A stretch of DNA of 64,000 bases from Candidatus Woesearchaeota archaeon (GTDB lineage Archaea; Nanobdellota; Nanobdellia; Woesearchaeales; JAGVYF01): contig JBAZLJ010000002.1 of assembly GCA_041650315.1 (NCBI GenBank), positions 65,599-129,598 on the forward strand. Reading direction: 5' to 3'. Below are positions 4,101-51,984 of the stretch, piece after piece. Every line of letters begins with the position of its first letter. Positions within the stretch are counted from its first letter, which is position 1. The notes below the pieces were generated by a model. That model ran no database searches. It saw only the letters and a list, made by a program, of their open reading frames with translations, and was not told where the DNA came from. The translations under genes and the position numbers were made by a program.

Positions 4101-4114
4101 ATTAGCTTTTGTTT

Positions 4115-31391: not shown

Positions 31392-34300
31392 ATGTCCTAC
31401 GAAATCCCTGCGGAACTTGAATACAAAGAGATAATCATGTTCGGACTTACATTCATGCAGTTGCTCTACGCAATGGTTTTCCTAGTGCCTATTGCCATCA
31501 TCCTGAAATCCGGCATCGATTACACAATCCAGGCAGTCATCATCGCATTGCTCGTCGGAATCGCTCTCATGTTCATGTTCTTCAATCTCACAGAGAAGCT
31601 CAAGGAGATGTGGCAATACATGAAGCTGAAGACCAAGTACCAAAGATACCTAGAGACTGACCAGAAAGTCGCCGTCCTAAAGATAAAGCCGATTAATTTC
31701 ACGATAAAGACTGACGAGGAGAAGCAAGTCATCATCAAGACGTTCAGGAAATTCCTTAACTCGTTGAACTTTCCGATACAGATACTCATCAAGACAGAGC
31801 CGTTGCTATTGGACAATTATCTGAACCAACTGCATAAGAAATCCTTGAATAAGGAGCTGGTCGCTGGCATGAAGAAACATCTTAGCGAGACTCTGAGTGA
31901 TAAAGTCTTGAACAAGACGTTCTACATAATCATCCCAGAGAAAACCGGATTGGAGAAAAGGCAGTGCATCGAGAAGCTCAAAGACCTCAACCTCAAAGTC
32001 GATGAAGCCAAACTGCCTGCAGAGAAATATTACAAAATCGATATAACGTCGGCAGACTTCAAGATAAAGCAATACCATACGATAATAGCGGTCAGAGGCT
32101 ATCCGAGATTTGTCGAATCCGGATTCCTCGACAAAGTAGTAACTTCGCAGGGCTATTTCGATATAAGCATCCATATCGAGCCGGATTCGATTGAGCATAC
32201 CATGGTCACGCTCAATAAAGAGTTGCAGAAACAGAAAGCCGATCTCTATTCTGCCGAACTCAAAGGCGTAGTATCGCCATCTCTCGAAATCAAGTACAAA
32301 GACACAAAGAGCATCCTTGAGCAGTTGCATAAAGGCGAAGAAAAGCTGTTCAATGTTTCAGTCTATGTCGAATGCAGAGCATCGACCAGAGAAGAACTGA
32401 GAGACCTTGTGGCGAAAATCCAGTCCGAGCTTAATGCGTTAATGATGGATTCCAAGATTCCTACTTATCGGATGATTCAAGGCTTGAAATCAGTCTTGCC
32501 GTCAGGCATTGATGCGTTGAACATCAAGCGAAACATAACAAGCAACGCCCTTTCGGCATTCTTTCCTTTCACATCCCCATTCCTTGAAATAGATGATGAC
32601 GGCATCTGGCTCGGCTTGAATAAGAACAACATTCCGGTAATAAAAGATGTATTCAAGCAATTCAATCCCAATGGTTGTATCTTAGCATCATCCGGCTCAG
32701 GCAAATCATACACCGCTAAACTAATCATAAGCCGTTATATTTTGAACGGGACTAAAGTCATAGTCATAGACCCCCAATGCGAATATAAGCAACTCGTGAA
32801 GCATTTTAACGGGCAATGCGTTGAGATTAGCAGGACTTCTGAGACCGTGATTAATCCATTAGACCTAGTAGGACACGAATATCCAGACAAACGTCTGTCA
32901 TTGATGGGCTTGATTCCAGTCATGTTAGGCGAACTGACGGAATCGCAGAAATCATTGATGGACAAAGCCATAACCATGGCATACCAAAAGAAGGGCATCA
33001 GCATAGATGAAGCCACATGGAGCAATATGTGTCCCATGATGTCCGATGTGCTCGATGCCCTCAAAACAATGGAAAGAGGGGCAAATACCTTTGAGAAAGT
33101 CTCCATTAAGTCTCTGATGAACAGGGTAGAGATGTATGTCAATGGCGTATTCTGTTTCCTCAATAAGCAGACGAAGCTCGATTTCAACAACAATTTCGTA
33201 TGCTTCGATATATCCAAGATGCCTAAATTAGTGCAACCAGTGATGATGTATCTGATTCTGGACTATGTCTACATGAAGATGAAGGCGGACATAAACCGCA
33301 AACTGCTTGTCATCGATGAAGCATGGACGCTTCTAGGCAGAGCAGAGGATTCCAATTACATATTCGAGATAGTCAAGACTTGCAGGAAATTCAATATGGG
33401 GCTTCTCTTAATCAACCAAGAGGTTGAAGGATTATTGACCTCAAAAGCCGGAAAGTCTGTGCTTGCCAATACATCATACACATTCCTGATGAAACAGAAG
33501 CCTGCTGTCATCAAAGATATCCGAGACACGTTCAATCTCAGCCCTGCAGAAAAAGACTATCTCCTGACTGCTTCCATCGGCGAAGGGCTGTTGATAATCG
33601 GCGATGAGCATACTGAGCTTAAAGTGGTCGCATCTGCTGAAGAGCATAAGCTGATTACAACCAATGCGGATGAACTATTGAAGCTCGAAGCAAATGCTAT
33701 GAACCCTGCTTTCAGGAAGGACGTGGAGATCAAGCTGGACTTGTCCAGCGATGTCTACCGGAAAGCGGATTTGAGCGAGGATGATGTGAAGTATTTGGTT
33801 AGGAACGGATATGCTGAAGAGCAATGCAGAGCGATAGAGGCGAAAAGACAGGAAGCATATCTCGTGAAGAAAAAGAGATGCGAAAGTATGCCCCACGTTT
33901 TCTTAGTTTGGGAGATTGCGAATTATCTAAAAAAGTATACTTCTGAAATCAAAACTACATCAACATCTGTGGCAGATATTATTGTCCAAACGCCAAAGGG
34001 CGAATTCGCTATTGAGATTGAAACGGGCTATTTCTTGAAACACAACAAAGCAGAATTATTTGATAAAGTAAAGGCATTGAATGAAAAGTTCGGCTCAAAT
34101 TGGTGCTTTGTTGTGACTGACAATGATATAAGAAAACAATATAGGCGATTAGGGAGAACATATACACGGATGGATTTATCGAGATTAGTGCAAGAAATTC
34201 CCCTCTCACCCCCTCAAATTCTGGCGTTTAAAGCTTTATCCCCCTCAAACTCTGCGAATTCGCCCGCAGGACTTACCATTCATACAACCAACACGGAGGT

Positions 34301-34484
34301 ATCTAAAATGAACGACCAACAACCTAAGAACGATAAAAACGAACCGACTAAAGAATACAACGATCAACCGATTCTCGAAACGCGAATTAGCTTGAGCAAG
34401 GATGGGAAATATGTCATACACAAGACAATCATCACAGACATAAAACCGATTGCATATATGCAAAAAGTACTGGGCTCAGAATGA
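31392..34484 (+). CDS. VirB4/TrbE/CedB-like conjugation ATPase with N-terminal TM anchor and C-terminal extension
   Basis: Walker A ASSGSGKSYTAK and Walker B LLVIDEAWTLL. 1030 aa. Confidence 0.7.
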   Translation: MSYEIPAELEYKEIIMFGLTFMQLLYAMVFLVPIAIILKSGIDYTIQAVIIALLVGIALMFMFFNLTEKLKEMWQYMKLKTKYQRYLETDQKVAVLKIKPINFTIKTDEEKQVIIKTFRKFLNSLNFPIQILIKTEPLLLDNYLNQLHKKSLNKELVAGMKKHLSETLSDKVLNKTFYIIIPEKTGLEKRQCIEKLKDLNLKVDEAKLPAEKYYKIDITSADFKIKQYHTIIAVRGYPRFVESGFLDKVVTSQGYFDISIHIEPDSIEHTMVTLNKELQKQKADLYSAELKGVVSPSLEIKYKDTKSILEQLHKGEEKLFNVSVYVECRASTREELRDLVAKIQSELNALMMDSKIPTYRMIQGLKSVLPSGIDALNIKRNITSNALSAFFPFTSPFLEIDDDGIWLGLNKNNIPVIKDVFKQFNPNGCILASSGSGKSYTAKLIISRYILNGTKVIVIDPQCEYKQLVKHFNGQCVEISRTSETVINPLDLVGHEYPDKRLSLMGLIPVMLGELTESQKSLMDKAITMAYQKKGISIDEATWSNMCPMMSDVLDALKTMERGANTFEKVSIKSLMNRVEMYVNGVFCFLNKQTKLDFNNNFVCFDISKMPKLVQPVMMYLILDYVYMKMKADINRKLLVIDEAWTLLGRAEDSNYIFEIVKTCRKFNMGLLLINQEVEGLLTSKAGKSVLANTSYTFLMKQKPAVIKDIRDTFNLSPAEKDYLLTASIGEGLLIIGDEHTELKVVASAEEHKLITTNADELLKLEANAMNPAFRKDVEIKLDLSSDVYRKADLSEDDVKYLVRNGYAEEQCRAIEAKRQEAYLVKKKRCESMPHVFLVWEIANYLKKYTSEIKTTSTSVADIIVQTPKGEFAIEIETGYFLKHNKAELFDKVKALNEKFGSNWCFVVTDNDIRKQYRRLGRTYTRMDLSRLVQEIPLSPPQILAFKALSPSNSANSPAGLTIHTTNTEVSKMNDQQPKNDKNEPTKEYNDQPILETRISLSKDGKYVIHKTIITDIKPIAYMQKVLGSE

Positions 34485-34543: not shown

Positions 34544-35716
34544 TTGAAAAAAAGAATTCAAATTTCGGAAATAATGCCGATATTATCTAAAGCGATTAAT
34601 CAAAATAAATTAAGTCCTAATGTCCCTCATTATTATACCAGAATATTTACTTATTTTGATGAAATTGAAATTCCTGAAACATCATTTATGCAGACATTAA
34701 AATCCATATCATCCATCCTTAACGAAATAGATCAACACCACTTTAAAAGTCCAGAAGACTATTTTTTGTATATTATTAGTATTTGTGAACATATTACTTC
34801 AAAGATTTTTCAAAAAAGTATTAATCAAAAGGAGATATATGAAAAATATTCCACTCAATTTAATCAAATCGTAGATTTAATTAAAGAAATATATTCAAAA
34901 TTTGAAGATTCTTTTGCACAATCTCGAACAAATGAATATAATTCTTTCAAGGGGAATAATACTTCTTCCAAAATTGAATTAGAATTTGATTTAACTAGTG
35001 AACTGGACATTAAAAAAGCAATAATCAAAGAATTTGTTCTCCCCTACAAATATGAGATTAAAAAAGATAAAGTAATTAATAGGGGATATGTCCCGATAAT
35101 TTATCAAGGAAAAATAATTTATCAAAGTGAATCCAAATCATTTAGAGGGCACATAATTGAAAATGAAATCACCCCTATGGGATATCCCTTTTATGGAATA
35201 GACATAATTCATCCTAAAAATGAAAATGAGTTTATAGAATTTGTCAATGAATTAATTGCCATATTTAAACATAATATTGAACAGAGAAAGGGATATAAAC
35301 TATTATGGAATGGAACAAAAAGTAAGCCTGAAGAAGAAGTACAAATCTTTTTTGATAATCAAATTATAGAATTAGCCCAAAGAAGAGGCATTGAAGTCTC
35401 TCGAGAAAATGAAACGGGGCGCGGTCCAGTTGATTTTAAGTTTATTGAATCAGTAGAACATAAAGCACATCTTGAAATCAAAAAGGCGTCTAATCCTAAA
35501 TTAATAAAAGGGTTATCTAAACAATTAGTTACTTATTTAAAAGCGGATAAATTAGATATAGGTTTTTATCTAATAATTCAATTTTTTGACAATGAGGATA
35601 AAATTATCAATACGTTTAAACAACAAATTTCAAAATTAAGATTAGATAATAATATAAAGATATTTACTATATTTATTGATGCAAGAAGAAATAAAAAATC
35701 TGCATCAAAATTGTAA
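34544..35716 (+). CDS. hypothetical protein with candidate C-terminal PD-(D/E)xK nuclease motif
   Basis: Very AT-rich. ...ENETGRGPVDFKFIESVEHKAHLEIKKAS gives a D...ExK arrangement. Confidence 0.4.
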   Translation: MKKRIQISEIMPILSKAINQNKLSPNVPHYYTRIFTYFDEIEIPETSFMQTLKSISSILNEIDQHHFKSPEDYFLYIISICEHITSKIFQKSINQKEIYEKYSTQFNQIVDLIKEIYSKFEDSFAQSRTNEYNSFKGNNTSSKIELEFDLTSELDIKKAIIKEFVLPYKYEIKKDKVINRGYVPIIYQGKIIYQSESKSFRGHIIENEITPMGYPFYGIDIIHPKNENEFIEFVNELIAIFKHNIEQRKGYKLLWNGTKSKPEEEVQIFFDNQIIELAQRRGIEVSRENETGRGPVDFKFIESVEHKAHLEIKKASNPKLIKGLSKQLVTYLKADKLDIGFYLIIQFFDNEDKIINTFKQQISKLRLDNNIKIFTIFIDARRNKKSASKL

Positions 35717-35717
35717 A

Positions 35718-36707
35718 ATGGCTGAAAAAATAGTTAATCCCGAAACCAAAGAAATAATTATCAAGTGCAGTAGTGATTTAGAATTAAATAGCTATTCTAA
35801 TTTTTACGATGCATTTGGAGATTTAACTATTACTGAAATAGTTAATAATTTTAATATAGTTAGATATAGTTTATTTGAAAGATATTATTTGTCCGATAAA
35901 AGCTTTAAAGAAACAATTAAAGTGATGAAACAAAATATCCTAAAGCTTCAATCGCAATGGGATACTTTTACACCATTAAAACCTAGAATAATTGATATCG
36001 AAGATTTTAATGCGGGATTTAAATTTACTATTATTAAAAATATTAAAAAGAAAATTAAGGATAAATTAGATAATCTAGAGATATCAAGAAAAGGTACGGA
36101 TTTTGCATGTGTTGTTTATATCTATAAAAAAGAAAATAATAAAGTGGGGATTTTATTTTCGAATTATAATTATAGTAATTCTAAATTACTTGATTATCTC
36201 TCTAAAGAATTGGTTGAAAGGCTTATTTTCGAAAATCTTAGGCCTGAGAAATATAAATTAATTGAATTGGTAGATCGTTTAAATAAAGTAATTGGAATTA
36301 AATTTGACCCTGGGTACTTAGTCCCAAAAAAGATTAAAGATAAATTACAAGAACAAGATAAAATTAGATTAATCTCTAATTCTATAAAATTAGAGAAACA
36401 AGAAATTAGATTATTAGATTTAAAATCATTTGAAGAGTTTAATATTCTTATCTCTGATATTAAGAATAAAAAACGTGATATAGAGCAATTAGAGGGGTAT
36501 TTAGATTTAATTCGAATTAAAATTGAATCTTTGGATAAAGGCACTAAAACAGTAATTACGGTTTGGTCAAATAAATTAAATGTTGAAAGTAAAGGGGAAT
36601 TTGTTTATTTAATGGGTTTTTTAAAACAATTATTTTTAAAACAGAAATCAAATCATAAAAAAGAGATTATACAAAAAACAATTAAATCTAGTCTTATCGC
36701 TCATTAA
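35718..36707 (+). CDS. hypothetical Lys/Asn-rich protein, apparently co-operonic with the preceding gene
   Basis: ORF. Start placed at the ATG two nt after the upstream stop. Confidence 0.35.
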   Translation: MAEKIVNPETKEIIIKCSSDLELNSYSNFYDAFGDLTITEIVNNFNIVRYSLFERYYLSDKSFKETIKVMKQNILKLQSQWDTFTPLKPRIIDIEDFNAGFKFTIIKNIKKKIKDKLDNLEISRKGTDFACVVYIYKKENNKVGILFSNYNYSNSKLLDYLSKELVERLIFENLRPEKYKLIELVDRLNKVIGIKFDPGYLVPKKIKDKLQEQDKIRLISNSIKLEKQEIRLLDLKSFEEFNILISDIKNKKRDIEQLEGYLDLIRIKIESLDKGTKTVITVWSNKLNVESKGEFVYLMGFLKQLFLKQKSNHKKEIIQKTIKSSLIAH

Positions 36708-36932: not shown

Positions 36933-37034
36933 ATGATAGAAAAAGACCATTTTTGCGAATATGAAATAGCTGGAGAACTGATTCTCTGCGGAATATGCGG
37001 TGCAGAGCACCACATTAAGGGTGATGTCCAATGA
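36933..37034 (+). CDS. 33-aa zinc-finger-like peptide (C..C....C..C..HH), translationally coupled to ardA
   Basis: ggaggt ribosome-binding site. Its stop overlaps the ardA ATG (ATGA). Confidence 0.3.
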   Translation: MIEKDHFCEYEIAGELILCGICGAEHHIKGDVQ

Positions 37035-37534
37035 GGATTGCCATCACCGATTTGAAAGATTACAATGAAGCCATTCTCAGATTCGAATGGCTTAATCTCG
37101 AAAACTGCTCAACTGCAGATGAAATCGGATGTTTCATCAACAGATTCCTTGCAAAACGGAGCAGGGAAACCGGTGAACTCCATGAAGAATGGTTCGTAAC
37201 AGATTACGAAGAATTCGTTGATCTCGGTGAGTATCCTTCTATCGAAGAACTTGCCGAAGCAGCCAAACTTAGCAAACTGCATGGCTGGGAAGCGGTTTCA
37301 GCATATTACGGCTATAACCGCTCCTTTGACGGTTTTGATGATGCTTATTCTGGCATATATGAAAGCGAAGAGGATTTCGCCTATGATATAGCTCACGAAT
37401 GCTATAGCGAGAAAGAACTAGGCAAACTTGAGCTGTATATCGATTGGGGGAAGTACGCTAGAGATTTGTTTATTGGCGATTACTTTAGCGAAAAACTTGA
37501 ATCATTCAAAATTGCAGTATTTAGACGAATTTAG
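37031..37534 (+). CDS. ardA: ArdA-family anti-restriction protein
   Basis: 167-aa acidic protein. N-terminal IAITDLKDYNEAILRFEWL, central EWFVTDYEEFVDLGEYPSIEEL and C-terminal YIDWGKYARDLFIGDYF align to the ArdA proteins of conjugative transposons. Confidence 0.7.
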   Translation: MRIAITDLKDYNEAILRFEWLNLENCSTADEIGCFINRFLAKRSRETGELHEEWFVTDYEEFVDLGEYPSIEELAEAAKLSKLHGWEAVSAYYGYNRSFDGFDDAYSGIYESEEDFAYDIAHECYSEKELGKLELYIDWGKYARDLFIGDYFSEKLESFKIAVFRRI

Positions 37535-38007
37535 GGCAATGAATATCCTGCATCAAAATAAGCTTGCATATCTGCAGGAACTCTTTGTTTGATTCTTTTT
37601 GAATCTTGTAATTTACCAATTTTAAATCCGTATTCTATTAAATTCCACCAATATTTATTAGAATTAATTCTAGAAACGGGTCCCCAAGCAGTTGAATCTT
37701 CAGTTAGATCTTTCAAATATTCTGGAACTTTATCTGATTTTTTAAATGTGATTCGTAATTCAGGTCCGAATTTATCTACCGAATCTAATTTTCTATAATC
37801 ATCACTAGAAGCTACATCTTCGCCAGATTTAGATTTATATTTAACTTCAAAGGCATCTTCTGATTTTTGAGGTACTTCTGCCCATAATTGAGTTTTTCTT
37901 TTAGAATTTGCTAAATAACCTACTGATTCAAAAAAAGCCTCATCTTTTTTCTTCCAACCTACTGGTTTTTTTAAACTACCATCCGGATTAAATTCATATA
38001 AACCCAT
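37531..38007 (-). CDS. hypothetical protein, last gene of the methyltransferase/helicase operon
   Basis: ORF; no motif recognised. Confidence 0.35.
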   Translation of the reverse strand: MGLYEFNPDGSLKKPVGWKKKDEAFFESVGYLANSKRKTQLWAEVPQKSEDAFEVKYKSKSGEDVASSDDYRKLDSVDKFGPELRITFKKSDKVPEYLKDLTEDSTAWGPVSRINSNKYWWNLIEYGFKIGKLQDSKRIKQRVPADMQAYFDAGYSLP

Positions 38008-38015
38008 TATTTCAC

Positions 38016-38678
38016 CTATTTAGATAAATATTTAATAAATTCTTCAACTGAATGAACTTCATCATCATCAAAATCAAATGATACCATCTTCTCAATACCG
38101 CCCCTTATTTCGTATTCTTCAGCAATGTAAGTTTTTTTAAGATCTATTTTAATAAAATAAGTTTCTTTTTCTTTATCACAAGTATGGGCTACCCATATAT
38201 CCATTTCAGGATGTTTTTTCATATACTCTATTTTATCCGGTCTTAACCATAATTCCTTACCACAACCGATTTTGCCAGTAACTTCTAAATAAAGAGTCTT
38301 TTTGCCGAATTTCATAATTACATCTGGTCCACCTTTCTCGATTGGATGTTTAAGTATAATTTTAGTGGAATCTGTGCCAAATCCAATATCTTCAAAAGTA
38401 ACACCTTTAATTTTATCTTGAATTAGTGAAAATACTTGTTTTTTTCTTTCTTGTTCTTTTTCCCAAGAATCTTTATATTTTAATTTCCAAACATAATCAA
38501 TAACATCCGAAAGTTTTTTAGTATCTATAACTGAACCCATTTCTAGTTTAATTCCGCTCAAGCGTTCAATATCAGGGGTCCGAGTGATATATGTTGCCTT
38601 AAAGAATTTCCCATCTACATAGATACTAATTCTATCTTTATTGCCCGTCTGAATTCTTATATCAGTTATTTTGCTCAT
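38016..38678 (-). CDS. hypothetical protein (weak PD-ExK-like pattern GPDVIM...LYLEVTGK)
   Basis: ORF overlapping the methyltransferase stop by 17 nt. Confidence 0.35.
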   Translation of the reverse strand: MSKITDIRIQTGNKDRISIYVDGKFFKATYITRTPDIERLSGIKLEMGSVIDTKKLSDVIDYVWKLKYKDSWEKEQERKKQVFSLIQDKIKGVTFEDIGFGTDSTKIILKHPIEKGGPDVIMKFGKKTLYLEVTGKIGCGKELWLRPDKIEYMKKHPEMDIWVAHTCDKEKETYFIKIDLKKTYIAEEYEIRGGIEKMVSFDFDDDEVHSVEEFIKYLSK

Positions 38679-41610
38679 TATTCCAATTTTCTATAAGATT
38701 GATATCATTAGATTCTAGATTATATAATTTGTAAATCTGTGAATTTAATTTATTTTCGAGAACTAATTTTTCTGTAGATTCTTTAGATTTTATAGCCAAT
38801 ATTTCATCTACCAACTTGGAGAATTTCTTTTGATCATTCAAATCAAGTGCAGGGATAGGTATTTTCATTAAATAGATTCCATCTAAATGAATTGTAAGAT
38901 TTGCTGAATTTAATATATATCTATAAAAGAAATAACTAACTACTCTCGAATTTAATATTGCTAAGATATACCTAGGGTCAAATTTTAATTCATCAAAGGA
39001 AACAATCACGCACCCACCCGAAGGCACATTTTTATCAGTATTGATTATAACACCCCTTGGATAAAGAGTTCCAAATTGAGTTATAACTACTAATTGTTTA
39101 TGCTCTAAGTAAGGGTTAGTATTGGTCTTATCTTTTGCAGAATATGCATCATAATCAAGATAAAATCGTTTTATATTCTTACCTCCTAAATAATAATATT
39201 TACCATTAGGTGTAATTTCCTTATCTAAATCAATGCCTCTATCACCATCAAGAATATTTGCTTTAAATTTGCTTATCTTTGAATAAATATCATCATAATA
39301 AAGAATCCAATACCCTTTTTCAACAGCCTCATTTATCGGCAAGAAACAGGTTTTATCTTCTCTCATAGAGTAGCATTTTATTTGATAATTATTTTTAATG
39401 CATTTCTGATAAAATATGATTATCATTTCTAAAGTAACGCCTTGGAATTGACCATATGCATCAGTAATTTCACGCAAAACTGAATTAGATTGGATGAAAT
39501 TTCGGATATAGTAATATCCCTCAGACCTAGAGATTGAATGCGGTACAATCATTGAAAATTGCCCATTTTTAGCTAATAAAAAATAAGTTCTTTCTAGAAA
39601 CATGGTCGCTAGATTGAATTGATTCTTAAATCTAGATTTGGTATTATGTGTTATAGATAAAATCTTGTATATCTCCTTATATTTCTCATTTAAATCATAA
39701 CAGACATAAGGGGGATTTCCAATAACTACATCAAATCCACCATTCAGTATAATATGCCCAAAATCGATTCTCCAATGGAATACTTGAAGCTCTGAAAATT
39801 CTTTATCAGATATTGGGGGATTCTTTCGAATAGCTTTATACTTTGCAGTTTGTTCCTTATGCGCTTTGCCATAATCAATGCCCGCTAATTTAAAATTAAT
39901 ATATTCTAAAAATGAGGGGGTTACTGCATGATAAATCGATTTTCTAATTGTCTCGATAATACTCCTTAGGTTTTCTGCTTTCAAACCATGTGTTTTTCTA
40001 TAAATTTTATACAAAATATAATATGCCTCAATATAATCATTTAATTTATAGGTTTTCAACAATTCTCTTGCTTTTTTAAGATCAGTACCTTCGCTATTTT
40101 CAGAAAAAGCGATTAAACCAGTGAATATCCCATCAACCTTCTCGGTAAGTGGCGTATTCATTGGCATTTGAACTAATTTCTCATCGAGCCAACCTACCAA
40201 ACTATTTCCCACTTTAAGATTATATTCAATATTCGGCAATGCTTTTATTTCATGTTTATTATCTTCATAATCTGAGATTAACCATAGCCAGAGTCTTAAT
40301 TTAGAAATTTCAATTGCACCAGCTAAAAAATCAACGCCATATATATTTTCAGTGATTATATCTAATTTTAATTCATAGAAATTTTTCTTTTCTTTTAATT
40401 CATATAATAGTCTTCTTTTAAGTCCCAATAATACTTCAGATGCTTTAATTAAAAATGCCCCTGAGCCACAGGCGGGATCTATTACTTTGATTTCATCAAG
40501 TATTTTTAGAGCATCTTTCATATCTTTTTTATTTTTGGATTCTATTAATTCCTCAAAAGAATGGAATTTGCCTAGCTTATCAAATAGACATGGAAGTATA
40601 GTATTATTAGAGATATAATCAGTAATAGATTCAGGCGTATAATATACCCCCTTTTTCTTTCTTTCAGTTATCTTTTTGACCGCATTTTCAGCTTCTTTTT
40701 CAAAACCTTCACTTTCCCATTCAACAACGCTTCTTTCATAGACATGACCTAATATTTCTGGAGTTAATATTTTTTCTTCATTCTCCTCTATAGCTTTAAC
40801 ATCTTCAATTATCCAATGGTAACTATTCAAAAATTCAAATATTTCTCCCCATTGTTCAGAATCTAATTTTATATCCAAATCTTGTTCTAACACATCAGGT
40901 CTGAATAAACCACCATTCAAATAAGGCACAACTATCTGATAATCGCCTATTTCAAGTAGGTTCTTCTCTTGAGAATTAAATAGATGGAACAATTTTTTAA
41001 GATTCTGTAAAAAGTTACCCTTTTTTAATAATATCTTAGTAAATAAACTTTCACCAGAAATTTTACCCCCATCATTAAATTTTATAATTCCCTTGTGGCA
41101 TAAGAAATATATAAAGAAAAACCTATCAAATATTTTCTGAGCAATTAGATATTTATGTATTGGTTCAACATCATTTTTTATATTTTGAACAAGAAGATTT
41201 CTTTTAAGCTTAAAAGCTTCATAAAATAATCCCGAGATATCTTTTGATTGGAATAAATAGTCTAAATTAGTGATATTCTTTAGTTTATCTACTTTTGAAG
41301 GATTATTTTTTGTTCGTTCAGAATAAATGAAATGTTTTGTTTCGCCAAAGCTTCTAAAAAATATTAGTTTAGTATCTATGCAGATTATACAATAACTTAA
41401 ACCTCTATCCATTAAGAAATGATCTTTGATCTCTTTAATCTTTTCTTCATCGTATACTTCATATATGACTAAAAGCTTTCGCTTATCTATTCTAAAGAAG
41501 ATTCCTTCTTTGTATTCTTCATCAGAATATTCTTTTTCTTCATTAAACCCTTTTTCTTTTAAGAATTCTATTAATCTTTTCTTTCCACCCAATATCTCTT
41601 GAACTTCCAT
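38662..41610 (-). CDS. gamma-class N6-adenine DNA methyltransferase with N-terminal domain and C-terminal target-recognition domain (Eco57I/PglX/LlaGI-methyltransferase-like)
   Basis: Motif I VIDPACGSGAFL and motif IV GNPPY. 982 aa. Confidence 0.75.
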   Translation of the reverse strand: MEVQEILGGKKRLIEFLKEKGFNEEKEYSDEEYKEGIFFRIDKRKLLVIYEVYDEEKIKEIKDHFLMDRGLSYCIICIDTKLIFFRSFGETKHFIYSERTKNNPSKVDKLKNITNLDYLFQSKDISGLFYEAFKLKRNLLVQNIKNDVEPIHKYLIAQKIFDRFFFIYFLCHKGIIKFNDGGKISGESLFTKILLKKGNFLQNLKKLFHLFNSQEKNLLEIGDYQIVVPYLNGGLFRPDVLEQDLDIKLDSEQWGEIFEFLNSYHWIIEDVKAIEENEEKILTPEILGHVYERSVVEWESEGFEKEAENAVKKITERKKKGVYYTPESITDYISNNTILPCLFDKLGKFHSFEELIESKNKKDMKDALKILDEIKVIDPACGSGAFLIKASEVLLGLKRRLLYELKEKKNFYELKLDIITENIYGVDFLAGAIEISKLRLWLWLISDYEDNKHEIKALPNIEYNLKVGNSLVGWLDEKLVQMPMNTPLTEKVDGIFTGLIAFSENSEGTDLKKARELLKTYKLNDYIEAYYILYKIYRKTHGLKAENLRSIIETIRKSIYHAVTPSFLEYINFKLAGIDYGKAHKEQTAKYKAIRKNPPISDKEFSELQVFHWRIDFGHIILNGGFDVVIGNPPYVCYDLNEKYKEIYKILSITHNTKSRFKNQFNLATMFLERTYFLLAKNGQFSMIVPHSISRSEGYYYIRNFIQSNSVLREITDAYGQFQGVTLEMIIIFYQKCIKNNYQIKCYSMREDKTCFLPINEAVEKGYWILYYDDIYSKISKFKANILDGDRGIDLDKEITPNGKYYYLGGKNIKRFYLDYDAYSAKDKTNTNPYLEHKQLVVITQFGTLYPRGVIINTDKNVPSGGCVIVSFDELKFDPRYILAILNSRVVSYFFYRYILNSANLTIHLDGIYLMKIPIPALDLNDQKKFSKLVDEILAIKSKESTEKLVLENKLNSQIYKLYNLESNDINLIENWNNEQNN

Positions 41611-44600
41611 TTATTTCTCAATAAAGCTAATTGCAAATAATGATTCTTTGTTAGTATTTAACTTTTGCTGAACCCCTAATTTTGTGAAACTATCTTTAAG
41701 TTCATTAATCCATTGTTTAACTTTAGTATTGGTTATTTCTTCTTTTAATTCAACTTTTATTTTTTTAACCACTTTTTCAGTTGTACTCCCGCAATTATGT
41801 CTAGTCAATTCAAGAGTATCTTCTAATTTTGAAATTTCAGAATACAATTCAACAAGTTTTTCAGAAGTAATATAATCTAAAATATTATTTATTAATTTAT
41901 CAACATTATCATTGAAATAATGCATCCTTAGATGTTCTTTTCTTTTATTACTTAAATACTCTTCAAATGAATTAAGTTCGTGTTTAAAAATTCCTTCGAA
42001 ATCAATTCTTCTACTTAGTTCATCAGGATTTTGATTAGACAAAATTTCCTCGTTATATGAATCAGTATTCTTATAGACAATACTTAATCCCTTTTTACCT
42101 TCGAAACTAGTATAATTCTTACCTGAGGGGATATTGACTTTAGTTAGATCTTCCTTCTTAAGATTATACTTTTTAATTGCTTTTTGCAAAAATATTAAGA
42201 TGGGTTTTGAATAATCTAAAGCAATTTCTAAATCTTTAAAATTGCCTTCTCTTAAATTACCCCTTATTTTTTGAAGTACTTCTATGTACATCCTTTTGTC
42301 TTTAGCTCTTCTTTCCGATAAAAGCTCTTTTTCTGCTTCAAACCATATCCTATATTCAACTCCTACAAATCGAATTATATCCTTAATCCTTAATTCCATT
42401 GTTTCAACTAGTTTTAGTTCAATATCTAAATCATCATCCGGTCTAAAATTCAGAATCTCAATTTCTTTTGGAGCATCAAGTCTTGTTGCTCTACCTATTC
42501 TCTGTATTATTCTTACGGGATTATAGGGGATATCAAAATTTATTACTAAATCCGCACCGCTTATATTGAATCCTTCGGAGAGTGTATCTGTAGTTATTAA
42601 TATTCGAAGTTTATCTTTAGATTCATTAAATTTCTCGATGATTGTTTGTTTATTTTCAGTATTAGAATCAACAAATCTTATCTCATCGGGATGAATTGAA
42701 TTTTTAAAGTATTCTTTAATCGCTTTCAATGTATCTTTATATTCGGTAAATATCAGTATCTTTTTACTTTTATTAGAATTGAATACTTGACTTAATTGAT
42801 TTATTTTTTGGTCATTTTTGAATAATACTCCTGATTTTTCCTTTAAGAAGGGCTCTAATTTTTTTATTTGTTCATTTATCTTAGCTACATCAATTTTTAA
42901 TTCATTGAGTATTTTTAGATTACCAGATCCTTTACCTTCTTTGATTTTATCGATTACCTCTGAAAGCTTGTTTTTATAATCTAAATCAAAGTTGATATCT
43001 ATATCATTAAAATCCGAACCAAAATTAACATCAATCTCATCTTCATATTCTTCTTCCTCTAGATATTTAGTGTTTTGTTTCTCAATGGCAGTTAATATCA
43101 TAGTGCTTTTCTTGGATAATCTCTTAAGAGTAAGGTAGTAAGAACTGATATCACTTTCAAATCTTTTATATAATATCCATTTGAAAAACCCGCCTAAACG
43201 GACACCTTTTTCAGGGTCTAATATTCTTAAATGGGCGGCAGATAAGCTTGTGATAAAGTCTACAATCCCATTCACAATGTCTTTGTATCGTAAATCTAGC
43301 TCATATTTTATTTCTTCAATCTCGGGATCCTTTATTTTAGTAATATCAACATTTGAAAATGTCTTTAATTCGTCTATATAATCGGAAGAAGTTTTGATTG
43401 TCTCCCTCGTTGATTTGACAAACATCTCTCGTTCAATTTCTTCCTGTACCTTAGACAGATTCTCTTTTTCAGAATCAGTTAATTCTTCATATTCTTTATT
43501 TTTGAATAAGTTAATCAAATCACCAAGTTCTCTAACCAAAGTATCAAAGAGCAAGTTTTGCCCATGCCTATAGAATAATTTAACCAAATCCAAAAGATTA
43601 TCTAAGCTGGTATTAATTGGTGTTGCAGTTAAGAATAATATCTTAGAATTACCATTTTCATCGATTATCTTCTTTAGATTTCTAGTTCTATAAGCATCAG
43701 GATTCCTATAGTTATGAGCTTCATCGATTATAATTAACCCATAATTCTTTGCATATTTCTCAATTTTAAACATCTCGGGTCTTTTTTGCAAATCCCCCAT
43801 AGAAACCAGATTAACCTTATCATAAATCTCAAATTCTTTCAAATATCTAGGCCATTGGTCTTCATTATGGGCTAAACCCGCTGGAACTAGAATCATTACT
43901 TTTTTATCATTATTCAAGAAATATTTGGCTATTTGAGATGCAACATATGATTTCCCTAATCCTACTGATGAAGTTAAGAAACAACCCCTATACCCCTTAC
44001 TATTAAAATTATTTAACACCCTAATGAAATCTACATATTGGAATCGAAGTAATTTTGATTTTTTAAATTCCTCAAATAAATAATCAGCGTTTAGATACTT
44101 AATCAAAATCTTCAAAAATTCTTTCGGTTCAATATACATGAATGTATTTTCTAATTCTTCTTTAAACTTTGAATTTTCAATTGCCTCTACAATTGCATCA
44201 GCAACCTTCAGTTTTTCAAAATCTTCTGTTCCTTTCTTCCAAAGACTTTCAAACCATAATTCAACATCTTCTAAATCCTTAGGTTCAGTAATAATGGTGT
44301 TCAGCTCAGTATTTCCGATTAACCCACTAGGAGTCAAATTAGAAGAACCAATTACTCCCGCATTATACTTTTGAGATAAATTCGATGTGGAAATATCCTT
44401 TAAAAAAAGATATGCTTTACTATGCAATCTTTCAGGATTTTTTTCATCACCAAAATAAACCCTTACTTTAAGTGTCTTATATTCTTTGATTAATTGATAA
44501 AATAATTTTATCGCAGGTTTAGTTTGTTCATTTATTTGAAGTTCATTAAATTTCTCTTTGAAAGCTTTGATCAGCATATCTTTAGTAGGCTTTGTAGTTT

Positions 44601-44808
44601 CATAACCCATTAAAATCTTAATTTCTTTAAGATCTTTAAGAGAATTAATAATCTCAACTAAACCTTCAATATAGAAATAACCTACTGCACATTTGAAACC
44701 TTCTGAATCTTGAGCAATAGTTTTGAGAACTTCCTTCATATTAAGAGGATTTACTTGTTTATTATCAATTATTTTCCCATATCTTAATAGATTCTCAAAA
44801 TCAGTCAT
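41611..44808 (-). CDS. fusion of PLD-family (Nuc/BfiI-like) nuclease domain and SNF2/SF2 helicase
   Basis: N-terminal HKD-type motif LHSKAYLF...GSSNLT. Helicase motifs I GLGKS, II IIIDEAHN, III LTATP, VI QRIGRATR. 1065 aa. Confidence 0.7.
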   Translation of the reverse strand: MTDFENLLRYGKIIDNKQVNPLNMKEVLKTIAQDSEGFKCAVGYFYIEGLVEIINSLKDLKEIKILMGYETTKPTKDMLIKAFKEKFNELQINEQTKPAIKLFYQLIKEYKTLKVRVYFGDEKNPERLHSKAYLFLKDISTSNLSQKYNAGVIGSSNLTPSGLIGNTELNTIITEPKDLEDVELWFESLWKKGTEDFEKLKVADAIVEAIENSKFKEELENTFMYIEPKEFLKILIKYLNADYLFEEFKKSKLLRFQYVDFIRVLNNFNSKGYRGCFLTSSVGLGKSYVASQIAKYFLNNDKKVMILVPAGLAHNEDQWPRYLKEFEIYDKVNLVSMGDLQKRPEMFKIEKYAKNYGLIIIDEAHNYRNPDAYRTRNLKKIIDENGNSKILFLTATPINTSLDNLLDLVKLFYRHGQNLLFDTLVRELGDLINLFKNKEYEELTDSEKENLSKVQEEIEREMFVKSTRETIKTSSDYIDELKTFSNVDITKIKDPEIEEIKYELDLRYKDIVNGIVDFITSLSAAHLRILDPEKGVRLGGFFKWILYKRFESDISSYYLTLKRLSKKSTMILTAIEKQNTKYLEEEEYEDEIDVNFGSDFNDIDINFDLDYKNKLSEVIDKIKEGKGSGNLKILNELKIDVAKINEQIKKLEPFLKEKSGVLFKNDQKINQLSQVFNSNKSKKILIFTEYKDTLKAIKEYFKNSIHPDEIRFVDSNTENKQTIIEKFNESKDKLRILITTDTLSEGFNISGADLVINFDIPYNPVRIIQRIGRATRLDAPKEIEILNFRPDDDLDIELKLVETMELRIKDIIRFVGVEYRIWFEAEKELLSERRAKDKRMYIEVLQKIRGNLREGNFKDLEIALDYSKPILIFLQKAIKKYNLKKEDLTKVNIPSGKNYTSFEGKKGLSIVYKNTDSYNEEILSNQNPDELSRRIDFEGIFKHELNSFEEYLSNKRKEHLRMHYFNDNVDKLINNILDYITSEKLVELYSEISKLEDTLELTRHNCGSTTEKVVKKIKVELKEEITNTKVKQWINELKDSFTKLGVQQKLNTNKESLFAISFIEK

Positions 44809-44885
44809 TTTTAGTCATCAAAATATTATTTATGGTTTACTCTTATATAGCCTCAAAGATTTTTTGAATATATAAACCTTTATTT

Positions 44886-45314
44886 TTAAAACTCATCCTT
44901 TAATCTTTTAATCAGTTCCGCCCAATCCTTATACTCCACAACCTCATCCGCAGCAGCCTTCAGGAATGCGGATTCTTTGCCTGATTCGCACATAGCGACA
45001 ACACGAAGCCCTAATGCCTTGGCATAGCCCATCTCGAAATAGACACCATTGGCTTTCTCAGTGATATCCGCTAAAATCATATCGCAATCTTTAAGTCCCG
45101 CAGTAGCTCCTTCAATCACTTCAGGAAGCGAAGTCTGGACTGCGCCCCACTTCTGCACATCCCTAAAGAAGATGAATGTAGAGTGTCCAGCAGATTCTAA
45201 AGCATCGCTAAGCTCAGTCAATTTCTTCTTCAATATTGTAGTATCCGCATCCTTAAACTTGTACGCTATGTAGATTTTCATTCTTTTGACCTCCATAAAA
45301 TCGTTTATATGCAT
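44886..45314 (-). CDS. nucleoside 2-deoxyribosyltransferase-like (SLOG-fold) protein
   Basis: MKIYIAYKF... and GVYFEMGYAKALGLRVV resemble the NDT active-site region (catalytic Glu in F-E-x-G-Y-A). Confidence 0.45.
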   Translation of the reverse strand: MHINDFMEVKRMKIYIAYKFKDADTTILKKKLTELSDALESAGHSTFIFFRDVQKWGAVQTSLPEVIEGATAGLKDCDMILADITEKANGVYFEMGYAKALGLRVVAMCESGKESAFLKAAADEVVEYKDWAELIKRLKDEF

Positions 45315-46578
45315 TCTGCACTAATCTGACCAATTCAGGCAATTCTATATCAGATAAGCTTGCTTTATTGCTCAATTGGTATTTGATGAACCTATACAAC
45401 TCTTTCTCAGTCTCTGGTATAGTATCGTGTATATGTGAATATCTGTCTAACTCCTTATATCCCTTGGCATTAAGCTCATTGTATAAAGGTGTGCCTGGGA
45501 AAGCTCTGATGACTGAAAAGCAGACTATGTCTGGCTTGATCTCTTCAGCGAACTGCAATGTCTCCTCGATTTCCTGCAAAGTCTCTGTAGGCATACCGAA
45601 CATGAAATAAGCCTTTGTCCTGATTCCATACTTCCTGCAAACTGCGATAGCCTTGCGAGAATCTTCAAGAGTAATGCCCTTATTCATCAATTTCAAAACC
45701 CTAGAACTTCCTGACTCCAAACCGAAAGAAATCTTGTAACAGCCATTTTTAGCCATCAAATCAATTGTATTTTCATTGAACCTAGCGATAACATCTGCCC
45801 TAGACAGAATCCTCCATTTCACAACCAATTTGCGCCTATTCAACTCATGGATGAATGTAAGCACTCTTTCTTCAGTATGCGCAAAATTGTTATCTATGAA
45901 ATGGAAGTCATGAATCCCGCTAGAGACAATATGCTCAATCTCATCGACAATATTCTTGATACTGCGTTCCCGCACAACAGAGCCGGTCGGTTTGGAAGCT
46001 GAACAAAATACGCAGTTATATGGGCAACCACGTGAGCCCAGAATGACCGCAGAATATTTTTCATTAACAAATAAACTTCTATCAATGAAAGGTAAAGAAT
46101 CCAATTCCATAATCAAATGCCTATCAGGGTTATGCACTATCCCAGAATCCGAAAGATAGCTTACGCCATCGACATCTCTGCCATGTGCGATAAGTTCTTT
46201 CAAAGTATCTTCGCCTTCGCCACGGACAAGAGCATACGCATTGGTTTCACGCAATACTTTTTCAGGGAATAAAGTGGCATGAATCCCACCAACAATGATT
46301 TTGATATCATCAAGTTCAGCAATAATTCCTTTAATCAGTTCGTAAGTCGGACTGAGTATAGTGAAACAAGCATAATCAGGCTTGAACGATTTAACTGAAG
46401 AAACAATCTCCGCTGGAGACAAGCCTAAAGCTTCGCCATCAATTAATTTGATAGTATGCCCCGCATTCTGTAATATAGTCGCCATGTACCCTAGACCGAT
46501 TGGCGGCACTGTGTCGTATTCTTTTTTCTTATCTAACGCATAGTCTCTCAATGGAGAGCTCACAAAGACAATTCTCAT
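45253..46578 (-). CDS. B12-binding-domain radical SAM enzyme
   Basis: N-terminal cobalamin-binding-like Rossmann domain plus CPYNCVFC (Cx3Cx2C). Confidence 0.7.
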   Translation of the reverse strand: MRIVFVSSPLRDYALDKKKEYDTVPPIGLGYMATILQNAGHTIKLIDGEALGLSPAEIVSSVKSFKPDYACFTILSPTYELIKGIIAELDDIKIIVGGIHATLFPEKVLRETNAYALVRGEGEDTLKELIAHGRDVDGVSYLSDSGIVHNPDRHLIMELDSLPFIDRSLFVNEKYSAVILGSRGCPYNCVFCSASKPTGSVVRERSIKNIVDEIEHIVSSGIHDFHFIDNNFAHTEERVLTFIHELNRRKLVVKWRILSRADVIARFNENTIDLMAKNGCYKISFGLESGSSRVLKLMNKGITLEDSRKAIAVCRKYGIRTKAYFMFGMPTETLQEIEETLQFAEEIKPDIVCFSVIRAFPGTPLYNELNAKGYKELDRYSHIHDTIPETEKELYRFIKYQLSNKASLSDIELPELVRLVQNAYKRFYGGQKNENLHSVQV

Positions 46579-46580
46579 TT

Positions 46581-47720
46581 CTAGACCCCCATATTCTTTA
46601 AGTCTATCACGATATTGTCTACCAACCTCTTTGGTTTTCTATCACCCGCTATCAGTTTTTGATTTCTTAGATAATTCAGATAAGTGGAGACTGTGCTTAG
46701 ATTCAAGCCAGTCTTCTGTGCGATATTCAAGCTAGTATTCTCGCCATCGCAATTCTGTAGAATTTTGAGCTTCAAGGTGTTCAATGGCTTGATGTGCTGC
46801 TCAAACCTCTCTGCGCCCCCTATGAACATAGTTTTAGTCTTATCCTTGACATTCTCTTCCTGCACGTATTTGTTGATTACAGCGAAATAACGCATGAAAT
46901 TGTCAGTTATGACTGGGAACAAATTAGTCGAGTTTACTTTATCCAATAATTGATCTTTGGTAAATATTTCTTCGTTATAAGAAAATTTGTCGTTCAGAGC
47001 AGTATCAAGCACATCAAGCAAATGCTCGATTTCCAGCTTCGATGGTTTCTTCTCGCTATAATGCCCTTCGATAATCTTCAAGATATGCGTTCTAGACATT
47101 TCCATTGATGGAATCAAGCCAGTAGTCGGATGGATTATTACGGGGATCTTGGTAACATAGATGACTTTTGGCGGAGTGAATTTCACATAGCTTTGCTCTA
47201 GGACTTCTGAGATTATATTATAGAATACTTTGAATCTTTCAGATGTCAGATAATGCGTAGGCGGAGCACTGCATAATTCAGGGAATAGTTCAGGCATAGC
47301 CATAGCAATGAGATAATCTGCGATGATGTAACTCAGTTTTGAGATAGAAATCTTGTCAAATGGAATATAATCCAGTTCAAAGCCTTTCTTGAGATCCCCA
47401 ATAGTTATTCGGGACAATATTTTCTGGAATACCGCCGAATATTCAGAATTCCTGAATAGCCTGTCCCACGCCTCAGAGAAAGTAAATGTGTTATAGTCCA
47501 TCTTGAGATGAGACATCAATTTCTTCAGAACATCTACATTCTCATCCAGCTTCTGCGGTTTATTCTTTACTCCATGGAAAAGCTCGTTTTCATATACATA
47601 ATTGTCCCAGACGCAAAGATAGACCTTATTGGCTCTAGCTTCATTCTTCAAATAATAGACATGATTCAGATTAGTGTAAGCTTTGGTTACTGGACTGATG
47701 TTAGTATAGACGATGTTCAT
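46581..47720 (-). CDS. hypothetical protein with C-terminal winged-helix DNA-binding domain
   Basis: C-terminal LSTVSTYLNYLRNQKLI helix-turn-helix. N-terminal 300 aa unknown. Confidence 0.4.
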   Translation of the reverse strand: MNIVYTNISPVTKAYTNLNHVYYLKNEARANKVYLCVWDNYVYENELFHGVKNKPQKLDENVDVLKKLMSHLKMDYNTFTFSEAWDRLFRNSEYSAVFQKILSRITIGDLKKGFELDYIPFDKISISKLSYIIADYLIAMAMPELFPELCSAPPTHYLTSERFKVFYNIISEVLEQSYVKFTPPKVIYVTKIPVIIHPTTGLIPSMEMSRTHILKIIEGHYSEKKPSKLEIEHLLDVLDTALNDKFSYNEEIFTKDQLLDKVNSTNLFPVITDNFMRYFAVINKYVQEENVKDKTKTMFIGGAERFEQHIKPLNTLKLKILQNCDGENTSLNIAQKTGLNLSTVSTYLNYLRNQKLIAGDRKPKRLVDNIVIDLKNMGV

Positions 47721-48340
47721 TTCAGCAAGTCCTCCAGATGCTCCGGCTGAACGTGCTTTGTATCCATGCCCGCCAAAGCAGCACCAGATAAATCTCTATC
47801 AAAATCATGCGAAACATAGACAGACTTCTCGGGCTTTACATTAGCTCTTCTTAATGCTTCAAGATAGATTGCTGGATGCGGTTTCCTGTATCCTACTTCG
47901 TAGGACATCGTGATAGTCTGGAATAAATCCTGGAGGTTATATTGTTTTAACTTCGGCATTATAGAATCGTGCGGGCAATCTGAAATTATATGCAAAGGAT
48001 ATTTTCCTGCAAGAGCTCTTAATACTTGTTCAGTTTGCGGAAATATCTCGTAATCATGGTCATTCAAGCGATAGATATCAGTCAATGCGTCTGTCAGCTT
48101 ATCATCTAAGCCATACGCTTGCTTCACTATTCTTGGCAAAGGCCATTCTATGCTATGCTTTCTATCTTTCACATAAAGCTTGATTGCTTGCGTCCATTGA
48201 TCTCGTAGTTGCTCGTTAGTATAGCTTAAACCTTCTTGTCGTAAATATTGCTGAGCCATAGCATGAGCTCTATCAGAAGTCTGTTGATTGAATGTTATAT
48301 CGAATAGCAATCCCCCAAAATCGAAAAACCAATCTGCCAT
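47717..48340 (-). CDS. HAD-superfamily hydrolase (phosphatase-like)
   Basis: Motif I FDFGGLLFD, a Lys motif (KPHP) and motif IV YVSHDFDRD. Confidence 0.55.
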   Translation of the reverse strand: MADWFFDFGGLLFDITFNQQTSDRAHAMAQQYLRQEGLSYTNEQLRDQWTQAIKLYVKDRKHSIEWPLPRIVKQAYGLDDKLTDALTDIYRLNDHDYEIFPQTEQVLRALAGKYPLHIISDCPHDSIMPKLKQYNLQDLFQTITMSYEVGYRKPHPAIYLEALRRANVKPEKSVYVSHDFDRDLSGAALAGMDTKHVQPEHLEDLLK

Positions 48341-51802: not shown

Positions 51803-51984
51803 GGCGACATTATTTTTTTAAGCTGAGGATGACTCTATCTGAAAAAGAAGAATTATGCGAAATAGCTAAAGACAATGGATTTGATACAGTTAGTTCTTAT
51901 TTAAGATGGGCAATTATGAATAATCTTCCTAAAGATATCCAAGAGATAAAAAATATTCTGCAAAAAAGAGAAGAAAAAAACTAA
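51799..51984 (+). CDS. ribbon-helix-helix (CopG-like) protein 3
   Basis: MTLSEKEELCEIAKDNGFDTVSSYLRWAI. Confidence 0.45.
   Translation: MRRHYFFKLRMTLSEKEELCEIAKDNGFDTVSSYLRWAIMNNLPKDIQEIKNILQKREEKN

Follow-up and report, generated by a model that had tools for sequence, protein, structure and literature searches.

The subject of this report is a cassette of four genes at 37531-44808 on the minus strand of a window of 64,000 nucleotides (nt), the whole stretch of DNA that was analysed, from the genome of a Candidatus Woesearchaeota organism, a DPANN archaeon (contig JBAZLJ010000002.1, positions 65,599 to 129,598). We found that the locus is an archaeal member, borne by an integrative and conjugative element (ICE), of a known pair of genes, one encoding a phospholipase D (PLD) nuclease fused to an SNF2 helicase and the other a methyltransferase like those of Type IIG enzymes, and that the pair is extended here by two accessory proteins. 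The cassette is probably an ATP-dependent defence system of the restriction-modification (R-M) type, the core of which would be formed by the methyltransferase and a PLD-SNF2 protein cutting in trans, with the two accessory genes as a second, methyltransferase-dependent nuclease module.

The two-gene arrangement is widespread, has already been remarked on twice and is unnamed. An earlier reading made from the letters alone (the sequence-only reading) did not know it as a named system. The pair had nevertheless been noticed, by van Mastrigt et al. 2018 (PMC6098607) on a Lactococcus plasmid and by Milman et al. 2023 (PMC9881135) at programmed-inversion loci. Before them, Aravind and colleagues (PMC3417536) had remarked on fusions of HKD with SWI2/SNF2 among R-M systems, and PADLOC holds an 'HKD+Snf2' model.

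Gene organization of the cassette

The sequence-only reading had reported four coupled open reading frames (ORFs) of 1065, 982, 220 and 158 amino acids (aa) on the minus strand, and they were recovered at exactly the same coordinates. The first gene, PLD(HKD)-SNF2 (41611-44808), is predicted to encode the restriction/translocase subunit. It is followed by the gene of an MmeI/Eco57I-family gamma-class N6-adenine DNA methyltransferase with a target-recognition domain (38662-41610) and by two accessory genes, p220 (38016-38678), with RecX_N-like and Hjc-like PD-(D/E)xK domains, and p158 (37531-38007), with a LAGLIDADG-like fold. The 982-aa gene has its ATG (41610) right next to the stop codon of the 1065-aa gene (41611-41613) and overlaps p220 by 17 nt, and p158 begins 8 nt past the p220 stop with GGTGA placed 5 nt 5' of its ATG. 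The GC content of all four genes is 0.28-0.31, compared to 0.41-0.43 for the genes on either side.

A spacer of 77 nt lies 5' of the PLD-SNF2 gene (44809-44885, minus strand). It contains two archaeal TATA-like boxes, TTTATATA at 44869-44876 and TATATAAG at 44842-44849, and as read from the sequence it is the putative promoter of the operon. A scan for bacterial sigma-70 promoters and terminators gave a signal equal to the shuffle expectation, with a model that is bacterial and wrong for an archaeal host.

The PLD-SNF2 protein

The 1065-aa protein begins with a PLD nuclease domain at aa 55-190 (44239-44646, minus strand; Pfam PLDc_2, 1.1e-09, with a weak match to RE_NgoFVII). The SNF2-type ATPase core at aa 256-815 (42364-44043, minus strand) consists of two RecA lobes and an insert of about 235 aa, and was recognized by the Pfam families ResIII/SNF2-rel_dom (263-412) and Helicase_C (667-777). 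The C-terminal region, aa 816-1065 (41614-42363, minus strand), had no Pfam match and is the least conserved part of the protein, with 12-18% identity to distant homologues as against 37-38% for the RecA lobes.

All of the motifs quoted from this protein by the sequence-only reading (LHSKAYLF, GSSNLT, GLGKS, DEAH, LTATP and QRIGRATR) are present, and none of them is degenerate. Among 17 homologues with 26-83% identity, the PLD residues H129, K131, G154-S155-x-N157 and E168 were invariant, and so were the helicase residues G283-K286, D362-E363-x-H365, T394-A-T-P397 and Q769-R770-x-G772-R773, which belong to the Walker A, DExH, TATP and QRxGR motifs of the family. Because only one HxK occurs in the 1065 residues, the nuclease is of the single-HKD (Nuc/BfiI) type.

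When the profile of the family was compared with solved structures, RapA came first (1.5e-26) and was followed by SNF2 remodelers. The best PADLOC model was C3a139, 'HKD+Snf2' (1.5e-42), matching over the full length (residues 23-981). The proteins from which that model was built had originally been recorded among the neighbours of Type III CRISPR loci (PMC6546367). Other PADLOC matches (DrmD, BrxHII, HmaA, DpdE and ZorD) were confined to the helicase lobes, and the BrxHII and Hma helicases are likewise related to RapA according to Rakesh & Krishnan 2026 (PMC12839542). We counted 854 homologues of the PLD-SNF2 protein at E<1e-10, mainly in DPANN, Asgard and other archaea, many of which carry PF09565. 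A further 517 plasmid records contained relatives at lower identity.

The methyltransferase

Pfam assigned the 982-aa protein to Eco57I (1.1e-26), MmeI_Mtase, N6_Mtase and TaqI_C (807-919), and PADLOC to REase_MTase_IIG (3e-44) and DrmMI (4e-32). The NGGLF spacer and the GxxYTP, DPAxGSGAF and NPPY motifs of the MmeI/Eco57I/PglX clade are found in the 982-aa protein (METHYLTRANSFERASE), including the DPACGSGAFL and NPPY that had been quoted for it. CamA, BrxX/PglX (e-26), BseCI and MmeI were among the matches of the family profile in the PDB. The catalytic core, aa 301-640 (39691-40710, minus strand), contains GVYYTPE, DPACGSGAF (motif I) and NPPY (motif IV) in invariant columns, and is 79.5% identical to that of an orthologue in another locus of the pair, L033 (loci collected from related sequences are numbered L001 onwards).

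By alignment, the N-terminal domain, aa 1-130 (41221-41610, minus strand), occupies the position of the nuclease in Type IIG/IIL enzymes. Orthologues share 56-79% identity over this domain, and no MmeI_N match was obtained by Pfam in the 982-aa protein. In a low-identity alignment the motif of the domain reads D42-x8-E51-V-Y53, without the catalytic Lys. The Lys was absent at this position in all nine PLD-SNF2-linked methyltransferases that we aligned; six of them have E-x-[Y/F/S/N], and three are without the E as well. The methyltransferase of L016, a locus with no PLD-SNF2 partner, has D...ELK there. It appears that the nuclease-like domain of the partnered methyltransferases has lost its catalytic function. 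The Lys-less domain agrees with a remark on the Lactococcus homologue, in which 'no restriction domain was found' and cutting was placed, as a probability, in the PLD-SNF2 protein (PMC6098607).

The recognition half, aa 641-982 (38665-39690, minus strand), which includes TaqI_C, has been swapped relative to the close orthologues. Compared with L033, aa 1-640 are 79-92% identical (81% overall to L033/L034) while aa 641-982 are only 18-21% identical, and we detected no similarity between this half and the recognition halves of the closest orthologues. Its best tblastn matches were two other Eco57I-type methyltransferases that are linked to p220 homologues, in L016 (2636-3541) and L018 (872-1687). 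On these alignments the methyltransferase is a mosaic with a swap of the recognition half, as is typical of specificity change in R-M systems. The window and L016 also have in common the 17-nt overlap of methyltransferase and p220 and a ...NEQN tail. These likenesses, together with the methyltransferase-linked contexts of p220 homologues described below, suggest a joint arrival of p220 and the recognition half on a single piece of DNA.

In one Woesearchaeota metagenome-assembled genome (MAG), L001, the orthologous methyltransferase is in two parts, encoded by separate ORFs at 3170-4108 and 4201-6396. This is due to a frameshift or pseudogene, or else to an error of assembly.

Conservation of the pair and its variable neighbours

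The methyltransferase gene directly follows the PLD-SNF2 gene in all eight informative close loci (L001-L005, L007, L033/34 and L035-38), that is, loci with enough sequence, drawn from DPANN, Asgard and one bacterial MAG. In each of the four distant annotated plasmid loci (Methanothermococcus, Lactococcus, Haloquadratum and Microcystis), the helicase has, at most three genes away, another large member of this methyltransferase family. The homologues of the pair occur on archaeal chromosomes, on haloarchaeal, methanogen and cyanobacterial plasmids and on plasmids of dairy Lactococcus. Because the two genes of the archaeal loci adjoin directly or overlap, a joint function of the two proteins can be argued.

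It is quite unlikely that the pair acts without distant cleavage, in the manner of BREX or DISARM, or that the PLD-SNF2 protein is a modification-dependent Type IV neighbour similar to SauUSI. The methyltransferase profile does lie near BrxX/PglX and the helicase near RapA and BrxHII-like SNF2 proteins, the matches to DrmD, BrxHII and DrmMI in PADLOC were partial ones, and the layout of SauUSI is also that of a PLD nuclease plus an SF2 ATPase. However, PglZ, BrxC, DrmA, DrmB and DUF499 were not found in the window ORFs scanned, which for the first four bears out the sequence-only reading. The NCBIfam scores reached 109 bits for DrmD and 61 bits for BREX-1 PglX, against cut-offs of 610 and 500. 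Moreover, the catalytic residues of the PLD domain are invariant, Pfam detected no DUF3427-type reader domain, and the close adjacency of the two genes in archaea speaks for a joint function.

Neither p220 nor p158 was found in any of the 12 informative loci bearing the pair. Because the small genes are missing from the other loci, conservation is limited to a core of two genes and does not extend to the cassette of four. The sequence-only reading had described the four as one operon, a view to be given up if they did not co-occur elsewhere, and they do not. It is accordingly very unlikely that a single four-component system requires every one of the four proteins. Such a system would fit the tight coupling of the genes and the low GC content that they share, but not the loci in which the pair lives without them, nor the fact that p220 and p158 are never together elsewhere.

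Beside the core, the accessory genes vary from locus to locus and include Cas4-like, GmrSD-HNH and DUF2779 proteins, an invertible TaqI_C half-gene with an invertase, and SMODS+SLATT. A Cas4-like PDDEXK_1 nuclease gene overlaps the start of the PLD-SNF2 gene in L003 (4595-5251), and in L035 a GmrSD_N+HNH protein (5744-6991) ends 10 nt 5' of it. L033 has a DUF2779/Cas4-like protein (5482-6966) and a 242-aa protein of no assigned fold (12986-13714), the gene of which overlaps the methyltransferase stop. In the Lactococcus cremoris plasmid pJM1F (L023, 1737-10230), an inverted TaqI_C half-gene and an invertase of the Mpi family lie 3' of the methyltransferase; judging from this arrangement they are a shufflon, which would switch specificity. 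In plasmid p1 of Microcystis aeruginosa NIES-2481 (L025, 1916-13000), genes of a SMODS nucleotidyltransferase and a SLATT protein are inserted between the methyltransferase and PLD-SNF2, and a MotA/ExbB-family gene then follows, so that several defence modules are interleaved. Two proteins of pMETOK01, of 801 and 145 aa, were considered as equivalents of DUF499 and DUF3780 and were set aside for want of Pfam support.

The p220 family

The two small proteins had been described as having no recognisable domains. This holds for Pfam, PADLOC and PHROG, none of which gave a match, and a viral structure library gave none either; but at the level of folds both can be placed. The protein p220 has a RecX_N-like domain at aa 1-90 and an Hjc-like PD-(D/E)xK domain at about aa 112-220 (D119, E132-V-T134 and R146-P-D-K149). 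From NCBIfam it had just a RecX match far below the cut-off.

Homologues of p220 are coupled to DNA methyltransferases. A methyltransferase gene directly adjoined the homologue in all of the first seven contexts, mostly upstream and overlapping, and among 20 metagenomic homologues the 5' neighbour was a methyltransferase in 16 (seven of MT-A70, six of Eco57I and three of N6_N4 type). The p220 proteins are 34-40% identical to one another. In L041 (2108-7820) and L055 (2066-7779), a p220 homologue lies between Mod and Res of a Type III R-M operon. The order in L011 (1997-11728) is SNF2 helicase, DUF4391, p220 homologue, Mod and Res. Small ORFs that follow the methyltransferase in L033 (242 aa) and L002 (173 aa), and a 226-aa protein of L029 encoded ahead of a p158 relative, were compared with p220 as possible homologues and rejected at an hhalign probability below 1%.

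These contexts allow another reading, which is possible although we do not favour it: two systems may share one methyltransferase, namely the PLD-SNF2 protein with the methyltransferase, and a separate Type II-like system of the methyltransferase with p220, in which p158 would be a DNA-binding partner. Recombination would then have brought in the second restriction enzyme along with the methyltransferase's recognition half. In favour of this reading, MT-A70 methyltransferases and, in L016, an Eco57I-type enzyme lacking PLD-SNF2 are each joined to a p220 homologue in a module of two genes; the overlap and the tail are common to the window and L016; in its recognition half the window methyltransferase is akin to the L016 and L018 enzymes and not to its own orthologues; and relatives of p158 occur in methyltransferase operons with other small proteins. 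On the other hand, p220 proteins that are 34-40% identical to one another pair with three classes of methyltransferase, presumably differing in specificity, which is odd for a sequence-specific Type II endonuclease, p220 is without the canonical catalytic Lys, and the four genes of the window are of one composition and tightly coupled.

We think it unlikely that p220 is a latent guard nuclease similar to PrrC, which the methyltransferase would hold inactive and which an anti-restriction protein would free as an effector of abortive infection. PrrC lies inside a Type Ic operon. The coupling of p220 to many unrelated methyltransferases would suit such a role, as would its place within Type III R-M operons (L041 and L055) or 5' of Mod (L011), which recalls PrrC, and an Hjc-like fold suggests cutting that depends on structure and not on sequence. 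However, the idea depends on the analogy with PrrC. In a related and equally doubtful form, p220 and p158 would be two undescribed families of methyltransferase-coupled effectors, p220 a latent structure-specific guard or back-up nuclease in place of an ordinary restriction enzyme, co-translated with m6A methyltransferases as different as MT-A70, Eco57I-type and Type III Mod, and p158 its DNA-binding partner. If this were true, p220 would fire when the methyltransferase complex is disabled or stalled, and the cassette would possess a second, anti-anti-restriction layer.

The p158 family

The fold of p158 is like that of LAGLIDADG homing endonucleases, but the catalytic Asp/Glu at the end of the helix is absent. 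The helix reads VGYLANSKR (family consensus LGYLAxxxR) and has no conserved acid, which p158 has in common with the non-catalytic WhiA; it is probably a DNA-binding protein. It had seemed to be an orphan in a word-index search for homologues, and this was overturned by an exhaustive search. Relatives of p158 were found directly after DNA methyltransferases in five independent contexts, often after a pair of them, and some are fused to HNH nucleases. In three of the five contexts an ORF with a LAGLIDADG-like motif then follows, of about 315 aa where it is complete.

A recurrent operon of this kind was seen in L026 (1026-4777), L070 (3514-7927), L032 (1406-4126) and L069 (1062-4017). It starts with one or two DNA methyltransferases of the D12, N6_N4 or Eco57I/TaqI_C type, followed by the p158-like protein. 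The ORF with the LAGLIDADG-like motif (…AYLFGLITGRGT…) comes after the p158 relative in L026, L070 and L032, the copy in L032 ending at the contig edge, and in L026 and L070 a further protein of about 170 aa comes after it. The operon looks like an undescribed, Type IIS-like R-M architecture, and a nuclease role of the last gene would be a guess from the motif. The 226-aa and 165-aa neighbours of p158 relatives in L029 and L026 had been guessed from motifs to be PD-(D/E)xK nucleases, which PDB and Pfam searches did not confirm, and the proposal that a fragment upstream in L029 is the C-terminus of a methyltransferase proved to be unsupported.

The window is the only place in which p220 and p158 co-occur: no p220 locus had p158, and no p158 locus had p220. 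Both families are recurrent companions of DNA methyltransferases that are overlooked in the annotation of defence systems. Pfam, PADLOC and PHROGs do not see them at all and NCBIfam hardly does, which amounts to an annotation gap. Although the two-gene core is unsurprising to a specialist, the result on the small families may be more useful.

Proposed mechanism

The sites of MmeI-family and Type ISP enzymes are asymmetric and are methylated on one strand. We suggest that the methyltransferase of the window would use its exchangeable recognition half to read such a site and would methylate one adenine, marking the host DNA in the fashion of the MmeI family. Because the catalytic lysine of its N-terminal domain appears to be lost, it could not cut in the way of a Type IIG/IIL enzyme, and the PLD-SNF2 protein would supply cleavage in trans. 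At unmethylated sites the methyltransferase would recruit or license the PLD-SNF2 protein, whose RapA-like SNF2 motor would translocate on double-stranded DNA with ATP.

Single-HKD nucleases such as Nuc, BfiI and SauUSI work as dimers. Because a single-HKD domain is half of an active site, cutting should need two copies of the protein. The cut would be made when two PLD domains meet, either in a standing dimer or after two complexes have converged, as in BfiI and SauUSI and, functionally, in Type ISP enzymes. Most likely p220, possibly together with p158, adds a second nuclease activity that is tied to the methyltransferase.

Several points weigh against this scheme. A literature search found no experimental test of the PLD-SNF2 and methyltransferase pair. 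The loss of the nuclease in the N-terminal domain of the methyltransferase was called on an alignment of about 15-35% identity. In all 12 members of the p220 family the canonical Lys of the nuclease motif is replaced by Thr or Ser, so that the nuclease activity of p220 is uncertain. The accessory genes of other loci are of quite another kind, so that the core depends on none of them. Found together in the window alone, p220 and p158 may be unrelated hitch-hikers.

The integrated element and other genes of the window

The cassette lies inside an element of about 24.5 kb (28899-53382) that is integrated at a tRNA-Thr gene. A tyrosine integrase gene (51981-53228) adjoins the tRNA-Thr(GGT) gene (53369-53441), and a 15-nt direct repeat, AAGCCTCAGGGGAGA, is present at 28899-28913 and 53368-53382, corresponding to the last 14 nt of the tRNA-Thr gene and one flanking base. 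Between the repeats there are genes of a VirB4/TraG-like ATPase (31392-34484) and of a protein similar to a pilin of type IV secretion systems (30482-31390). An ArdA antirestriction gene (37031-37534, plus strand; Pfam ArdA, 7.9e-27; GC 0.41) is convergent with p158 and overlaps it by 4 nt; we treat it as context, outside the cassette. The integrase, the tRNA-Thr gene, the direct repeats and the low GC content agree with the sequence-only reading, in which the four genes were AT-rich cargo of an integrative element next to ardA. In this DPANN archaeon an R-M cassette is thus seen to be carried, along with ArdA, by an ICE-like element, and a conjugative-type element with ArdA in such a host is of possible interest in itself.

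Two overlapping ORFs of 390 and 343 aa (34544-36707, plus strand; GC 0.24-0.26) lie between the VirB4-like gene and ArdA. They had no match in Pfam, PADLOC or NCBIfam, and the 390-aa protein matches phrog_30194, a family with no annotated function, at 1.2e-20. A second cassette of four genes is found 5' of PLD-SNF2 (44886-48340, minus strand; GC about 0.40). It encodes a protein of 142 aa like nucleoside 2-deoxyribosyltransferase and a B12-binding radical SAM enzyme of 441 aa that matches the PADLOC candidate PDC-M51A at 9e-20. Its other two products are a HAD phosphatase and a protein of 379 aa that ends in a winged helix. This cassette may be a separate candidate for defence by nucleotide modification. 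We considered it as a part of the system described here, which was ruled out by its differing GC content and its absence from the related PLD-SNF2 loci.

Comparison with known systems

The closest counterpart is the unnamed pair of a PLD-SNF2 and a 'Type IIG-like' protein on the Lactococcus plasmid pLd8 (orf33/orf34), in which both proteins have the same domains as those of the window and are encoded by adjacent genes; the second is an Eco57I-family methyltransferase that has a TaqI_C recognition domain but no nuclease that could be recognised. The pair of Lactococcus pJM1F matches both large proteins of the window, with an identity of just 26-28%. The window locus has the two features of this pair, a single-HKD PLD nuclease joined to SNF2 in one protein and an adjacent large gamma-class methyltransferase with a recognition domain, in which the nuclease appears, from alignment, to be lost. 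In the bacterial pairs specificity changes through invertible TaqI_C half-genes and an invertase, whereas in the archaeal clade the whole recognition half is replaced. The window differs from the pair found elsewhere by the added p220 and p158.

Type ISP enzymes (LlaGI and LlaBIII) are built of the same parts, that is, a nuclease, an SF2 translocase, a gamma-class N6-methyladenine methyltransferase and a recognition domain, and the likely logic is also similar, with a mark on one strand of an asymmetric site and ATP-driven translocation. The sequence-only reading had pointed to this likeness, with the parts divided over two polypeptides and a PLD nuclease in place of PD-(D/E)xK. The division and the replacement were upheld by the ORFs, by Pfam and by the conserved residues, and the likeness stands for the functional parts; it does not extend to structural profiles, as LlaGI and LlaBIII were absent among the listed PDB phmmer and profile matches of both proteins (for the helicase, the best 60 of each search). 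The Type ISP enzymes are single polypeptides with an Mrr-like PD-(D/E)xK nuclease, whereas the window has two ORFs, a PLD/HKD nuclease and a RapA/SNF2-like motor. The cassette would thus function in the manner of a Type ISP enzyme in two parts without belonging to that class.

Class 1 DISARM similarly combines an SNF2 helicase (DrmD) beside a IIG-like methyltransferase (DrmMI) with a PLD nuclease (DrmC), but there the PLD nuclease is separate from the helicase, to which it is fused in the window. Neither the flanking genes nor the window's large ORFs showed DrmA or DrmB (DUF1998). The Type-2 BREX-related (Hma-like) systems have an N-terminal HKD nuclease on a RapA-like Swi2/Snf2 helicase together with an N6-adenine methyltransferase, all of which the window has too, and variable auxiliary nucleases lie beside their core (PMC12839542). 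The DUF499 AAA+ ATPase was not found, either in the window ORFs or among the neighbours scanned in L002, L003, L005, L033, L035 and L039, nor was DUF3780 in the window ORFs and the neighbours scanned in related loci. The PADLOC HmaA model matches the region of the C-terminal helicase lobe only. Membership in DISARM, in BREX or in the Hma/BREX-related systems is ruled out by the absence of the defining partners from the ORFs scanned and by the sub-threshold scores.

With Type IIL/IIG enzymes (MmeI, Eco57I and BpuSI) the methyltransferase has in common the helical spacer with NGGLF, the gamma-class core and the C-terminal recognition domain. It differs in the PD-(D/E)xK motif of its N-terminal domain, which by alignment is without the Lys, and in the ATP-dependent partner that is conserved alongside. 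The association of a PLD nuclease with an SF2 ATPase is known from SauUSI (Type IV) and from CglI and NgoAVII (ATP-dependent Type II). However, SauUSI has a reader of modified DNA and no methyltransferase, while in CglI and NgoAVII the PLD nuclease and the ATPase are on separate proteins, with a B3-like DNA-binding domain and a C5 methyltransferase. Among the systems that join SNF2 proteins to methyltransferases (Type ISP, DISARM, BREX type 3 and Hma), the pair looks like the smallest member, and because of this it offers a tractable two-protein model for motors that couple the sensing of methylation to cutting.

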